This document shows, piece by piece, positions 18,001 to 24,000 of a stretch of DNA of 64,000 nt. This DNA is from Escherichia coli (GTDB lineage: Bacteria > Pseudomonadota > Gammaproteobacteria > Enterobacterales > Enterobacteriaceae). Each line of letters begins with the position of its first letter. The first letter of the stretch is position 1. A program made the position numbers. The stretch is from assembly GCF_011045215.1 (NCBI RefSeq), contig NZ_CP049202.1; one strand, written 5' to 3'.

Positions 18001-21000
18001 ACCCCCATAATCTGAGAGAACTGCAGTTCGGTATATACCCTGAGTCAATTCATGTGCTTGACTGGTTTCATATAACGATGAGGCTGACGGTGTTAATGCA
18101 GTATGCAAAGGGACCGCAGGCATCAGAGCCAGCGACGGGCAGTAAGGTGTTATCGCTTCTGGAAAGCAGTAAACGATATCTCTGGCACGGTAATGTTGCC
18201 ACTGCACTGGATCGCATTGACGATTGCGTTATGTACTGTGATGACCATGAACTCAACTATGTAAACCTGAAAGCCCTGCAAAAACAGCTGGATGAGATGT
18301 ATACCTACATCCGCAATAATCAGATGATGATCCCAAACTACGGAGAAATGTGCCGGTATGGTGAGCCGGTTTCAACAGCGTTTGTCGAGTCAACAATCAA
18401 CGAAGTGATCGCCCGACGAATGGCCAAAAAGCAGCAGATGCAGTGGAGTAGAAAGGGCGCGCATTATTTGTTACAGACCAGAACTGCAGTCCTGAATAAC
18501 GAACTACAGGACAAATTCGCCAGTTGGTATCCCGGTTGTACGATAGACGCTCAGAGTAGAGGGACGTTATCCGCGATGGCAGCATAGCTACTGCCCCAGG
18601 GTTTTTCATGCTCTCCTTAACTGACCCAGTGAGGTGAAGACCTTTGATAATCATAATCAGTGAAATGCAACGCAAGCTTGCCACATGGACAGCAACCGCC
18701 CCGTCCCGACGGATTACACGGCTGCTGCGTCTGATAACACAACCAGAATGGCTGGCTGAAGCCGCACGGATCACCCTTTCATCAAAAAGGGCACATACCC
18801 CCGGTGTTGACGGTGTGAGTAAAGCAAAGCTACAGGCCAGACTGCCTGCTGAGTTGCAGAGACTCAGCGAAGAACTTCTCTCTGGTCACTACCAGCCTGT
18901 ACCAGCCAGACGGATTTATATCCCTAAAAGCAACGGCAAACTGCGACCACTGGGTATCCCCACGTTGCGGGAACGTATTGTTCAGCGGACCATGCTGATG
19001 GCGATGGAGCCGATATGGGAGAGTGATTTTCATGCGCTCTCGTATGGCTTCCGGCCTGAACGCAGTGTCCATCACGCGATCCGCACGGTAAAATTACAGC
19101 TCACCGACGGTAGTGAAACCCGGGGACGCTGGGTGATACAAGGGGGATCTGTCCAGCTACTTCGATACAGTACATCATCGACTGCTGATGAAAGCAGTAC
19201 GCCGCAGGCTCAGGGATCCACGCTTTATGGTCCTGCTGTGGAAAATCATTAAAGCAGGACACGTTGATGTCGAACTCTTCCGGGCGGCCAGTGAAGGTGT
19301 GCCACAGGGCGGAGTGATCTCGCCGTTGCTGTCGAACATCATGCTAAATGAGTTCGACCAGTATCTTCATGAACGTTACCTGAGCGGAAAAGCCCGGAAA
19401 GACAGCTGGTACAGGAATAACAGTATCCAGCGGGGTCGAAGCACAGCAGTCAGTGAAAACTGGCAGTGGAAACCAGCGGTGGCGTACTGCCGCTATGCCG
19501 ATGATTTCGTGCTCATCGTTAAAGGTACTAAATCACAGGCAGAAACCATCAGGGAGGAGTGTCGTAGCGTGCCCGAAGACAGTCTGAAACTCAGGCTGAA
19601 CATGGACAAGACCAGAATCACCCATGTTAACGACGGCTTTATCTTTCTGGGGCGCAGGATTATCCGCAAACGCAGTCGTTACGGCGGTATGCGGGTGGTC
19701 ACGACGATCCCACGTGATAAAGCCAGAAACTTCGCGGCATCCCTGACGACATTGTTATCAGGCAATTACAGTGAAAGCAAAATCGATATGGTTGAGATAC
19801 TCAACCGAAAGCTGAAAGGCTGAGCTGCGTTCTATCAGTTAGTTGATTTTAAAGCCAAAGTGTTCAGTTCTATCGACCGAGTTGTGTTCTGGAAGCTGGC
19901 TCACTGGCTGGCCCGAAAATACCGTAAAAGTATTGCATACCTGATGAGGTGGTGGTGTAAATCGCCAAAACTAGGTCAGAGTAAAACGTGGATTTTATTT
20001 GGTAAAACCAACCACGGGAAGCTCAACGGTGAAGTACTTTACCGGTTGGTCGGACAAGGCAAGAAGTCGTTCCGCTGGCGTGTGCCTGAGAGTAACCCTT
20101 ACCTGAGGACAGAGACCAGAAACACGTACACGTCACGATATCCGGAAGTGGCAATGGCACTAGCCAGCGTTTAGACGGAAAGCCGGATGCGCTGAAAGGT
20201 GCACGTCCGGTTTGGAGAGGAGAGACAGGGAAATAGCCCGACTACGCCCTGTCTCTTACTCTACTCAGCACATGGCAGGGCTTCGTCTATGTGGCGTTCA
20301 TCATTGATGTGTTTGCCGGATACATTGTGGGATGGAGGGCCTCATCGTCCATGGAAACGACATTTGTGCTGGATGCACTGGAGCGTCGACCGTCCGGCAC
20401 TGTCCATCACAGTGATAAGGGTTCTCAGTATGTATCACTAGCCTACACGCAACGGCTAAAGGAAGCCGGATTACTGGCATCAACAGGGAGTACAGGCGAC
20501 TCATATGACAACTCGATGGCGGAGAGCATCAATGGTCTTTACAAAGCGGAGGTAATACATCGTAAGAGCTGGAAAAACCGTGCAGAAGTGAAACTGGCCA
20601 CACTCACATGGGTGGACTGGTATAACAATCAACGCTTACTGGAAAGGCTGGGCCATATCCCTCCGTCAGAAGCAGAAAAAGCGTATTATGCTTCCATCGG
20701 AAATGATGATCTGGCAGCCTGAGTTCACAGATAAAACTCTCTCCAGGAAACAGGAAACCCAGGGCGGTTCAGATATGTCCACGATGCGTGCGTTGTGACG
20801 AAGGCTGGGATGCCTGAAAGTGTGCGTATCATCTGACAACAGCAACCGTTGGCTGGGGTGCTTATTCAAAATCTGATTTATTCAACAAAACCGCTAATCA
20901 GCTTTCCTGCAGGCCGGTCTGATTAACGGTTTTGTAGTATTCCTATCTTTACGATATATTAATCATGTTTTTTTTCATTTCCATTGGAGTGATACCAAAG

Positions 21001-24000
21001 TATTGCCTGAAGGTACTAATGAAATAAGAAGTACTTGAATATCCACATCTTGTTGCTAACTTATTTATAGATAATTCACTTATCATTAAACGTCTGGCAT
21101 GTTGCATACGCACATCTAACAAGATTTGAGAAAAAGATGTGTTTTCTTCATAAAGTTTTCTTTTTATAGAACTTTCACTCATGTAAAGATACTGCCCAAT
21201 ATCTTTCATTTTCCATATTCGTGATGGTTGTGAATATATAATACATCTTATTTTCATTACCAATGAGTTGATGCTTTTAACCAACAGAGATAAGAACCCT
21301 GTTTGCTCAGAAAATGCTGAAATACATGTAAAAAACATCTGCTCTGAAAATGCAATGGGTAGTAATGTATCGGAATTGAGTTTTCGTATTATACTGCGTA
21401 AGATAGATACCTCTTCTAATGGTGCTTTTATATAATGTGTAACATTCGGATTTTCTACATACAATGGTATACAGGTGCATTCCAGATACTTTGTTATTGT
21501 TTTTTCACTAATTTTTAATTCTGTAAATTTACTGGAATATACATAAAAATCATATCTTGATCTACTATCTGTTAGAAAAGCATGATTTTTATTTGCTTTT
21601 ATTTTTTTTCCATCGATGTTAATGATGAATGATGAATTAACCAGAATTACTGAACAGGGATACATCTCAATTGCTCCATTATTTAGTTCATAAGCCATAC
21701 CATTGTTGAATGATGGGGTTGTATGTCATGTATATGGAAAATGTATATATATCTTTTAAAGTCACCTCTCCCGATAAATTATTAATTCATCATAACTTAC
21801 TCCTGACTTATAAATAATTTTGTTGTAACTATGGTTTTATCTAGAATTTTCTCGGTGTTATGCGTTTCAGTTATTTGTAAATAATATTAAATATATTCTA
21901 TGTGTTATTTTTGTTATTTTGGAACAAAATTAACTTGTTAACAATAATAACTTTTACAAGTTCAATGAAATTAAACGATTTAGTCAATATTCATAATTAT
22001 GGTTTGACTCATAGTTATATAAAAATACCTTTAATATATATCAATACATTGAAAATATTGGTATTTTATTTTTTTTGTTGTTTTGTTTTTTGTATCATGT
22101 TGTTCTTAAAAAAGAAAAGTGTACATAAAAATTAACATACCTCCTTATTGGTATTTTTTATGGTTTCTACATTACCGTGATATAATTTATTCGCAGTATA
22201 TATAAATTTTACTTATTGTTGGAGATGGAAATGAAATACATTCTTAGTGTGGTTGCTCTTTCAGTATCACTGATATCCACTTCTGCGTTAGCTCAGGATT
22301 CCCATATAACCGGTGAACCTCATATACAGGAAGTATCAACTGTTACAGAGAAAAACATTAAGCTTGAGCAGCGTGGAATGGAGGTTATAAGAGATATCCA
22401 ATATTCCCGTTTGTCTTTATTTAGTGGCGATACATCTACAGCCAGTAAATTGATAAAAAAAGCTAATGATTTATTGGGTTCTGAATATAAAACATGGGAA
22501 TCAATTATCAGAAAAGACAAAAAAGCGCCACAAAAAGATGATGTATACGTCATCATTAACAGTCAACTGACGCTTGCAGAAGATTTTACAGCTACACCAG
22601 AAAAGCAGAAAGCCATTGATGAAGCAAATAAAAAACTGGATAAAGGTGACAAAAAAGGTGCAATTGAAAAACTGCAGTTGGCAGGAATTAATATATCTGA
22701 AACACAGTGGCTTATGCCTTTAAAACAGACTCAGCAGAAAGTGAGGAGTGCACAGATCTTGATGGCTGAAGGTAAATATTACGAAGCCAATCTCGCTCTG
22801 AAAGGTGCTGAAGATGGCATAATTATGGATACGGTCAGCTTTCACTAATAAATAACCCAAAATTATCATATTATACAAATCGACCAGCCTCTGTTAATTA
22901 CAGAGGCTGGATATAATTTCAATCCGAATTATCATTTTAATATCTACCCAGCCTGTATCAACCACAGAAAATACCACAGTAGGTCTGAATATACTGAAAA
23001 AACATGATTGCGATAGTGTTATTTCTCCTAGTGAGCTGGCCCCCTGAAATACCAGACAGTAGATGTATCTTAAAATAAGAGATAGGCTTGGATATATGTC
23101 TAACACTAGTTCTAATTTTGAGATGGCTGGCGTTTTGTTAGGAAAAGAGGCGCGTAGACGTAAAACACCTCAGGAAAAAATCGCAATTATTTAACAGACT
23201 ATGGAGCCTGGCATGACGGTGTCCCACGTGGCGCGTTTGCATGGAATTCAGCCCAGTCTGTTGTTTAAGTGGAAGAAACAATACCAGGAAGGAAGTCTCA
23301 CTGCTGTGGCAGCCGGTGAAGACGTTGTTCCTGCTTCTGAACTGGCCGCTGCAATAAAGCAGATTAATCAGCTTCAGCGTTTACTGGGCAAGAAATCTAT
23401 GGTCCCCACCATTTTTGCAACACTGATTTTGATTGATGTTGGCCAGCCTAAATCTATCCGGCGTCATTATGGGCATGGATGCCCGCGCCTCGATGAGTTC
23501 CGCACCTGATGAGCCCAAAAAACCATCCGGCTTCAGTGAGCTATTTTCTTGCTGAGGCTTTTCATCAGGCCGATATGCCGTTCATGTCATCAATAATCAG
23601 TCTTCGCAAAACCAGATTGGGAACTACTTTAATTCATGATTAACCTGCCAGCCAGAATGGCGCCATCGTTACCTTTCGAACACAGTCTGCTGTGTTGTGA
23701 TTGCCCACGCTATCCGGGCTAATTTGTTGGCCAGTGCACAACATACTACGCTGGAGTGTTTTCTTGCCAACAGCGCCCTGACCCAGTCCGCCAACCTTCC
23801 TGACTGATTCTCGATTCTCTGAATAAAGGATCTTGCGCACTGAACGAGTAACCGTCGCAGATTTTTATCTCCGCGTTTACTTATCCCTAAAAGTGTATTT
23901 TTACCACCTGTGCTGTACTGCCGGGGTACCAGACCGGTTGAAGCAGCAAAGTCCCGACTGCAGCTATATTGTTTACCGTCTCCCAGTTGCGATGACAATA

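Follow-up and report, generated by a model that had tools for sequence, protein, structure and literature searches.

The stretch of DNA analysed here, 64,000 nucleotides of the Escherichia coli contig NZ_CP049202.1 (hereafter the window), contains at positions 20949-22848 an AT-rich block bounded by insertion sequence (IS) remnants, which is a horizontally acquired two-gene unit on an IncF-type conjugative E. coli plasmid. In this block, a gene for an AraC/XylS regulator of the YdeO clade and a gene for a predicted exported protein of the YfdX family diverge from a common control region. We propose that the unit is a foreign stress cassette silenced by H-NS, in which yfdX is switched on by the neighbouring YdeO-like activator, possibly with a further action in trans on the acid-resistance regulon, a reading that we rate as an even call. 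RefSeq already lists both genes under their families, and their sequences hold no surprise. The block thus adds a rare further copy of gene types that are known, and no new kind of system; the pairing and the absence of EvgA boxes represent a modest twist on these families. The unit consists of the following parts:

20949..21665, minus strand: YdeO-clade AraC/XylS regulator of 238 amino acids, assigned by NF007407, the YdeO alignment, HTH_18/HTH_AraC and the tree

21666..22230, no strand: divergent control region of 565 bp with 23.7% guanine plus cytosine (GC)

22231..22848, plus strand: YfdX-family protein of 205 amino acids (Pfam PF10938, E 4.1e-35), with a predicted Sec signal encoded by 22231-22293

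The GC content of 20949-22848 is 0.303, the minimum among all segments of 1.9 kb in the 64-kb sequence (mean 0.469, standard deviation 0.056). The composition profile gives 0.25-0.36 for 21001-23000 versus 0.45-0.54 for the flanks, and the intergenic part between the regulator gene and yfdX has a value of 0.237. With the lowest GC content in the window and IS3-family remnants on both sides, the AT-rich block between IS remnants of the original prediction was borne out. The regulator gene and yfdX form a divergent pair around a spacer of 565 bp; the earlier figure of 0.5 kb had been measured from position 21699 and is revised here on the basis of the regulator start at 21665. Each gene is followed by a terminator-like hairpin:

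20885..20935, minus strand: hairpin 14 nucleotides downstream of the regulator stop, 17-bp outer stem, -25.2 kcal/mol, z -4.5

22884..22910, plus strand: hairpin past yfdX, 11-bp stem with 7 GC pairs, -21.4 kcal/mol, z -6.5

For the first of these, none of 200 shuffles folded as well in the RNA fold analysis, and the second is included in the DNA homology with a chromosomal yfdX paralogue, which extends to 22943. Given that each gene possesses its own terminator hairpin, the unit looks complete, with two divergent transcription units and no obvious fragment.

The regulator gene lies in an open and intact frame of 249 amino acids (20949..21698, minus strand) with an upstream ATG at 21698. The translational start is most likely not this codon but the ATG at 21665 (M12), which yields 238 amino acids, because an MxxCSV N-terminus is common to the aligned relatives and a GGAG sequence is located 8 nucleotides upstream. 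The resulting N-terminus MYPCSV aligns with the starts of YdeO, GadW and AppY, C4, S5 and F13 are invariant in the alignment, and the RefSeq annotation likewise uses this start. On the 249-residue frame, Pfam identified HTH_18 (E 2.7e-17, residues 169-243) and HTH_AraC (E 8.4e-10), both C-terminal. The protein thus has the C-terminal domain of approximately 100 amino acids with two helix-turn-helix motifs that characterizes AraC/XylS regulators. The call of an AraC-type activator with a C-terminal helix-turn-helix was therefore correct, and the intact frame carries no inactivating mutation in the window.

By sequence, the regulator is to be placed in the YdeO/GadW/AppY acid-resistance group as a sister to YdeO. 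Its best NCBIfam match by far is the YdeO profile NF007407, which aligns over the full length (E 4e-53, 180.6 bits). As this score is under the equivalog cut-off of 348 bits, the protein is regarded as a YdeO-clade paralogue and not as YdeO itself. The profiles for HilD, GadX and HilC match the DNA-binding half only. Identity to YdeO of strain K-12 amounts to 41% over 229 amino acids (E 9e-60, 177 bits), to GadW to 34% over 234 and to AppY to 31% over 247 amino acids, while GadX aligns in the C-terminal half only. In a neighbour-joining tree, the regulator and uncharacterised E. coli proteins of approximately 50% identity are sister to YdeO, and the YdeO-like segments SESxxKxKL and STSYFI are kept in its DNA-binding half.

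The original prediction had termed the activator Rns/VirF-like, a label that holds for the fold class but not for the sequence. Proteins of the Rns/VirF type reach 58-82 bits and are confined to residues ~115-240: a sequence search of the PDB returned the GadX DNA-binding domain as top match and Rns/CsvR for residues ~116-240 only (E 8e-15, 58 bits), and tblastn against all PLSDB plasmids aligned VirF with residues 115-227 at 38% identity (113 amino acids) and CofS with residues 117-234. The AlphaFold (AF2) model of the regulator has a predicted local distance difference test score (pLDDT) of 85.7. In Foldseek, CsvR, Rns and ToxT rank highest among the full-length matches, with E values from 1e-12 to 1e-8, a TM score of ~0.42 and a differing domain orientation; on the GadX DNA-binding domain 3mkl, the model superimposes with a TM score of 0.88-0.90 and a root-mean-square deviation of ~1 Å. 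Neither the sequence nor the fold searches of the PDB surfaced a full-length structure of YdeO or GadW, so the fold match to Rns may simply result from the lack of other solved structures in this class.

The second gene, previously described as tentatively YfdX-like, clearly encodes a YfdX protein. The hidden Markov model PF10938 covers residues 57-207 of the open reading frame (ORF) and positions 1-148 of 149 of the model, and the solved YfdX structures 3dza, 6uxt and 6a02 were matched with E values from 3e-46 to 5.5e-42. The ORF table lists a frame of 210 amino acids (22216..22848, plus strand), from which the ATG at 22231 was chosen as start; a GGAG sequence lies six bases upstream (22221-22224), and the choice agrees with the RefSeq protein of 205 amino acids, a "YfdX family protein" cluster that matches exactly in sequence. 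The NCBIfam profile PRK10316 scores 223.1 bits, under its equivalog cut-off of 256 bits, and identity to YfdX of K-12 is 47% over 158 amino acids with the family-invariant residues kept. By these sequence comparisons, the protein is a divergent YfdX paralogue and not a member of the PRK10316 equivalog group. Its N-terminus, MKYILSVVALSVSLISTSALA followed by QD, is by inspection a typical Sec signal with n, h and c regions and an A-x-A site, for which cleavage between ALA and QD is predicted. The signal peptide proposed earlier is thus supported, a putative export signal being present alongside the YfdX domain. An N-terminal signal, followed by a variable linker, is common to 14 of the 14 aligned YfdX homologues, and the plasmid-encoded YfdX is predicted to be periplasmic.

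YfdX of Klebsiella pneumoniae is a periplasmic protein that is required for survival at pH 2.5, is cross-complemented by HdeA and suppresses acid-induced aggregation (PMC6394985). YfdX of Salmonella Typhi forms pH-dependent dimers and tetramers and alters the susceptibility to beta-lactams, and its loss raises virulence in Galleria (PMC6339873). The "virulence gene" that had been suggested to stand under control of the activator is a misfit with these published roles in acid-stress chaperoning, antibiotic susceptibility and the dampening of virulence (PMC6394985, PMC6339873).

The closest paralogue of the plasmid gene product is a YfdX encoded on a chromosomal island (82% identity over 168 amino acids), whose gene adjoins a porin pseudogene. 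Homology at the DNA level extends over 22341-22943, including the downstream hairpin, and reaches 92.6% identity in the 3' part. The signal-peptide region and the DNA upstream of it are unalignable, and the fact that homology begins only at about codon 37 suggests a mosaic 5' end of yfdX. The island itself was found in bovine/STEC-type (Shiga toxin-producing) E. coli (our loci L002 and L003, 6564-8341), where this yfdX paralogue is divergent from the porin pseudogene and has no AraC gene beside it.

The circuit in which both families are known offers a comparison for the control of the plasmid pair. EvgA recognizes an 18-bp box, TTCYTACA-NN-TGTARGAA. When applied to the evgA-yfdX locus of K-12, this motif retrieved four sites versus 0.26 expected by chance, namely two before yfdX, one before frc and one in the emrK-evgA interval, and it retrieved no site in the whole window with up to three mismatches allowed. 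The core yfdX genes of K-12, a second E. coli, a Citrobacter and a Yersinia carry EvgA boxes upstream, and none of the seven accessory yfdX loci examined (the window and six others) does. Direct control of the cassette by EvgA was therefore rejected, the box validated on K-12 being missing from the window. EvgA is a direct activator of safA-ydeO as well as of yfdX in K-12 (PMC5706723, PMC3720670, PMC4222967), the latter via PyfdX (PMC5706723), and gadE and gadW are among the genes that YdeO in turn activates directly (PMC4222967). Considering that the mobile pair lacks EvgA boxes, we infer that a YdeO-like activator encoded next to yfdX appears to have replaced EvgA in its control. A small ORF resembling safA was not found upstream of the regulator gene.

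Several elements that such a switch might use were located in the spacer. The nucleation motif of H-NS is tCG(t/a)T(a/t)AATT, and one exact and one imperfect copy are listed below together with the candidate promoters:

21969-21978, minus strand: H-NS-type motif TCGTTTAATT, exact (motif search)

21771-21780: H-NS-type motif, copy with one mismatch (motif search)

21729-21702, minus strand: candidate regulator promoter ATGACA-16-AACAAT (promoter scan)

22124-22137 and 22149-22162: imperfect inverted repeat just upstream of the candidate yfdX -10

22178-22186, plus strand: candidate yfdX promoter with the extended -10 TGaTATAAT and a poor -35 (read from the sequence)

According to the proposed mechanism, H-NS would bind and silence the very AT-rich control region, as it does with other foreign AT-rich DNA. 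The regulator would then bind the spacer, relieve silencing and recruit RNA polymerase to the yfdX promoter, which has a good extended -10 and a poor -35, and it probably activates its own gene too. The exported YfdX, by analogy with its relatives, may act as a chaperone-like periplasmic protector under acid or envelope stress. An additional action of the regulator in trans on the chromosomal GAD/AR2 regulon (gadE/gadW) is conceivable by analogy with YdeO, AppY, PatE and PsrB.

A number of points weigh against this stress-cassette reading, in which activation of the plasmid yfdX by the regulator is inferred and silencing of the block by H-NS is probable from base composition and a sequence motif only. 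The scan for sigma-70 consensus promoters gave 12 sites versus 12.1 expected and is thus at chance level. The YdeO box is an inverted repeat of ATTTCA, ATTTCA-N9-21-TGAAAT (PMC4222967); the whole window has no exact match to it, and with up to two mismatches, two copies were observed in the spacer versus 2.8 expected in shuffles. No spacer motif rose above chance, and footprinting of the upstream regions of three yfdX paralogues gave no conserved block. Furthermore, the closest relatives of the regulator (48-50% identical) adjoin genes for a GGDEF protein, a TonB-dependent receptor or K88-like fimbriae and in no case yfdX, and the regulator gene of the only complete-genome carrier, plasmid A of E. 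coli C5, shows two 1-bp deletions (locus L001, 10061-10794; equivalent to window positions 20968 and 21262), one of them in a run of T. To these points comes the low similarity of the regulators encoded beside other yfdX paralogues: the AraC proteins of the tandem units described below are 92% identical to each other and 33% identical to the regulator of the window, so that the pairing could recur by coincidence, as AT-rich genes gather on the same islands.

Within E. coli mobile DNA, yfdX paralogues are repeatedly linked to regulators of the YdeO/GadX group, possibly through more than one origin. A further two accessory yfdX paralogues of E. coli, 67% and 72% identical, each have an AraC gene of 244 codons in tandem ~155 bp downstream. 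These units resemble the cassette in that a yfdX paralogue of 67-72% identity lies beside an AraC gene of the YdeO/GadX group in mobile, IS-flanked DNA; they differ by the tandem arrangement with its ~155-bp gap instead of a divergent one and by an AraC protein whose 33% identity applies to the C-terminal half. Among 80 species-representative yfdX loci, an AraC ORF occurs within 6 kb in only two, in both cases not adjacent to yfdX, hence AraC adjacency is not a trait of the YfdX family as a whole. The tandem yfdX-araC unit (L028 and L029, 6001-7522 in both; L121, 5001-6463) was encountered on plasmids and islands in at least three contexts, namely with IS66 and colicin Ia, near an omptin gene, and near a PapC/PapD fimbrial operon with PerC. 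With 306 index blocks, it is much commoner than the cassette of the window.

The strongest competitor of the stress-cassette reading is that the regulator acts mainly in trans (gadE, gadW, slp-dctR, hya, app), with the neighbouring yfdX under separate control, for example by RcsB, RpoS or relief from H-NS, and with adjacency due to shared origin or hitch-hiking. The well-conserved DNA-binding half with its YdeO-like segments speaks for this, as does the spacer without a recognisable binding motif. So do the many unrelated genes adjoining the clade relatives, a variety from which we conclude that the regulator clade has no fixed partner. Precedents also exist: AppY, PatE and PsrB, AraC regulators gained by horizontal transfer, provide input to AR2 and work on it in trans (PMC10057817), and yfdX of K. 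pneumoniae is RcsB-dependent (PMC6394985). Against it, divergent genes that share a control region of 565 bp are the classic layout of a local regulator, yfdX paralogues recur beside AraC genes in accessory E. coli DNA and not across the 80 other species, and the two genes were never found apart on the examined carrier contigs that span both. We consider a predominant action in trans unlikely.

The virulence reading of the original prediction would make the pair an Rns/VirF/AggR-type activator with an H-NS-silenced secreted virulence factor as its target, in the manner of Rns-CexE or AggR-Aap, and a fragment of a larger regulon. The AT-rich divergent layout with a signal-peptide product agrees with this, and so do the full-length fold matches to CsvR, Rns and ToxT, the adhesin and fimbrial genes in the same plasmid region, and one regulator relative of 48% identity located upstream of a K88-like fimbrial operon. 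As outlined above, the fold matches may reflect which class members have been solved, and sequence similarity to Rns, CsvR, VirF and CofS is limited to the DNA-binding half, in contrast to the full-length match to YdeO (177 bits); the product is a bona fide YfdX, a family with documented roles in stress protection and whose loss made Salmonella more virulent in Galleria. AggR-type promoters carry WWWWWWWTATC 21-23 bp upstream of the -10 (PMC6392122). The motif search of the spacer for Rns/AggR-type sites, a check that the original prediction had called for, yielded three consensus matches (21773-21783, 22032-22042 and 22179-22189), none of them followed at 21-23 bp by a -10 that the yfdX strand could use; these matches are explained by AT-richness only. 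An AggR/Rns architecture was thus rejected, and we regard the virulence interpretation as improbable.

With respect to its distribution, the whole block is present in one of 72,556 PLSDB plasmids and in one of 5,426 complete E. coli genomes. The sole complete carrier is plasmid A of E. coli C5, an IncF conjugative plasmid from a cow (99.7% identity), with which the window is colinear for 10906-24751 and 28456-32914 only. In draft assemblies, the exact regulator protein was detected on 17-18 contigs and the exact YfdX on 87 contigs (110 index blocks). The context is constant (resolvase, then the divergent AraC and YfdX genes, IS110 and MipA/OmpV), and every examined carrier contig spanning both genes holds both in the same arrangement. 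Eight copies differ at five of 1,335 coding bases, with four of the five differences being synonymous, and at ~19 positions of the spacer (3.4%), which accordingly diverges ~9 times faster than the coding sequence. RefSeq splits the C5 regulator gene into two coding sequences; the two deletions may be real decay or a homopolymer sequencing error. At 22159-22165, a multi-base replacement and a 3-bp indel fall on the candidate -35 of yfdX, giving two promoter haplotypes.

That the block is inert cargo, a permanently silenced and slowly decaying leftover between IS remnants without current function, would be in line with the degraded IS elements and the broken group II intron around it, its rarity, the split C5 regulator gene and the fast-diverging spacer, but is the least probable of the readings weighed here given the intact frames of both genes here and on the further carrier contigs inspected, the predominance of synonymous coding substitutions, and the preserved terminators and Shine-Dalgarno sequences.

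Regarded from the side of known systems, the stress cassette has its closest counterparts in the EvgAS-YdeO-GadE cascade of K-12. YdeO (b1499) and the regulator share 41% identity over 229 of 238 residues, the same length, the M-x-x-C-S-V start and the recognition segments of the helix-turn-helix motifs. YdeO, however, is encoded in the safA-ydeO operon, whereas the regulator gene of the window is plasmid-borne, has no preceding safA or EvgA box, and is divergent from yfdX. Likewise, the window protein agrees with YfdX of K-12 (b2375), K. pneumoniae and S. Typhi in the full YfdX domain and in the predicted signal peptide with its variable linker. Its gene differs from that of K-12 in that it does not stand before frc-oxc-yfdVE or near evgAS and lacks EvgA boxes, and possesses its own terminator and an AraC neighbour.

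AppY of the DLP12 prophage and PatE and PsrB of prophages in enterohaemorrhagic E. coli (EHEC) are also AraC/XylS proteins encoded on E. coli mobile DNA, the likeness of PatE and PsrB being drawn from their description and that of AppY and GadW from sequence. They provide the precedent for foreign YdeO/GadX-like regulators that rewire acid resistance (PMC10057817). In contrast to these prophage-borne genes, the regulator gene studied here lies on a plasmid and is paired with a stress-protein gene. Rns/CfaD, CsvR, AggR and VirF with CexE/Aap have in common with the cassette the two-domain fold class, AT-rich and presumably H-NS-silenced targets, and the combination of an activator with a signal-peptide protein; the cargo of the window belongs to a stress-protein family and is not an adhesin or a dispersin-type factor.

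The boundaries of the block and the element next to it were assigned as follows:

20291..20772, plus strand: 3' remnant of an IS3-family element with the C-terminus of the transposase (NF033516, E 4.1e-42, profile positions 236-369 of 369), left boundary

23033..23509, plus strand: 5' end of an IS2-type element (IS3 family) with degraded orfA (PRK09413, IS2 repressor TnpA, E 1.8e-32), right boundary

23669-24721, minus strand: IS110-family element (NF033542, E 1.6e-103), interrupting the IS2-type remnant

On the left side, the transposase stop codon is at 20722 and IS homology finishes at ~20751-20772. A multi-copy IS3-family element of O104:H4 and O145:H28 genomes matches the remnant with ~92% identity as far as 20751, and an intact IS3-family copy of the C5 plasmid does so with 90% identity as far as 20772. 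It had been described as IS629-like; the assignment as an IS3-family remnant holds (NF033516), and the name IS629 itself could not be verified. The right flank proved to be an IS3-family end as predicted, namely an IS2-type orfA remnant, with the position of the boundary (~23033) read by eye from the sequence. An assignment of this flank to IS66 orfA was dropped, as the profile match is to the IS2 type of the IS3 family. The RefSeq annotation of the C5 plasmid gives the same order, with a transposase remnant, then IS110, then the remainder of the IS3-family gene. A composite transposon was rejected, since the flanks are two different IS3-family elements in the same orientation, one represented by its 3' end and the other by its 5' end. 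Further to the left (17973-20174), an ISKra4-family transposase remnant and then a frameshifted group II intron reverse transcriptase/maturase form an IS graveyard beside the cassette.

To the right of IS110, a segment of 3.7 kb (24752-28455) is missing from the otherwise colinear C5 plasmid. It carries small minus-strand ORFs at 24925-27039, of which the two that were searched (24925-25443 and 25443-25844) have no NCBIfam match, and may be a mobile or phage-derived insert. The Rfam scan of the block returned one sub-threshold noise match only. Searches with Hha and H-NS query sequences gave no homologue in the window, and the C5 plasmid has its annotated hha gene in a part that the window does not share.

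Several adhesin and regulator modules are spread across the window. A Rob-like AraC gene with an N-terminal helix-turn-helix (7180-8085, minus strand; E 3e-40 to RobA) is located in an AT-rich block (GC ~0.30) directly downstream, on the same strand, of a gene for a trimeric autotransporter adhesin of 1,175 amino acids (8385-11912, minus strand), with which it forms a second pair of a regulator and a surface protein. A third AT-rich gene of the AraC family, again Rob-like (E 3e-22), is situated at 59396-60241 (minus strand), and a fimbrial usher of the PefC/AfrB type at 51231-53657 (minus strand; 979 bits, above cut-off). An unexpected plasmid cargo is encoded at 46373-47551 (minus strand), where the iron-alcohol-dehydrogenase equivalog PRK09860 ("L-threonine dehydrogenase"), normally a chromosomal gene of the housekeeping type, scored 792 bits at a cut-off of 581.

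A further-reaching version of the stress-cassette reading would be a portable, EvgS-independent acid-stress switch, in which the YdeO-like activator controls yfdX directly and can also fire gadE/gadW, and which together with the tandem units would make up an unrecognised class of mobile modules consisting of a regulator and a periplasmic chaperone. We think this unlikely. If true, the plasmid could bring exponential-phase acid resistance to hosts with an unresponsive EvgS, such as those of phylogroup B2 (PMC5706723).

Acid resistance is important when bacteria pass the stomach and when they have to survive in food or in cattle. If the wiring proposed here is true, a YdeO-type regulator and the YfdX of the EvgA acid-response set would have been repackaged as a self-contained unit of a conjugative plasmid, and the regulator would be a further example, after AppY, PatE and PsrB, of a foreign AraC protein that retunes the acid resistance of E. 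coli. The poorly defined YfdX would thereby gain a dedicated regulator, with the help of which the conditions that call for YfdX could be identified.

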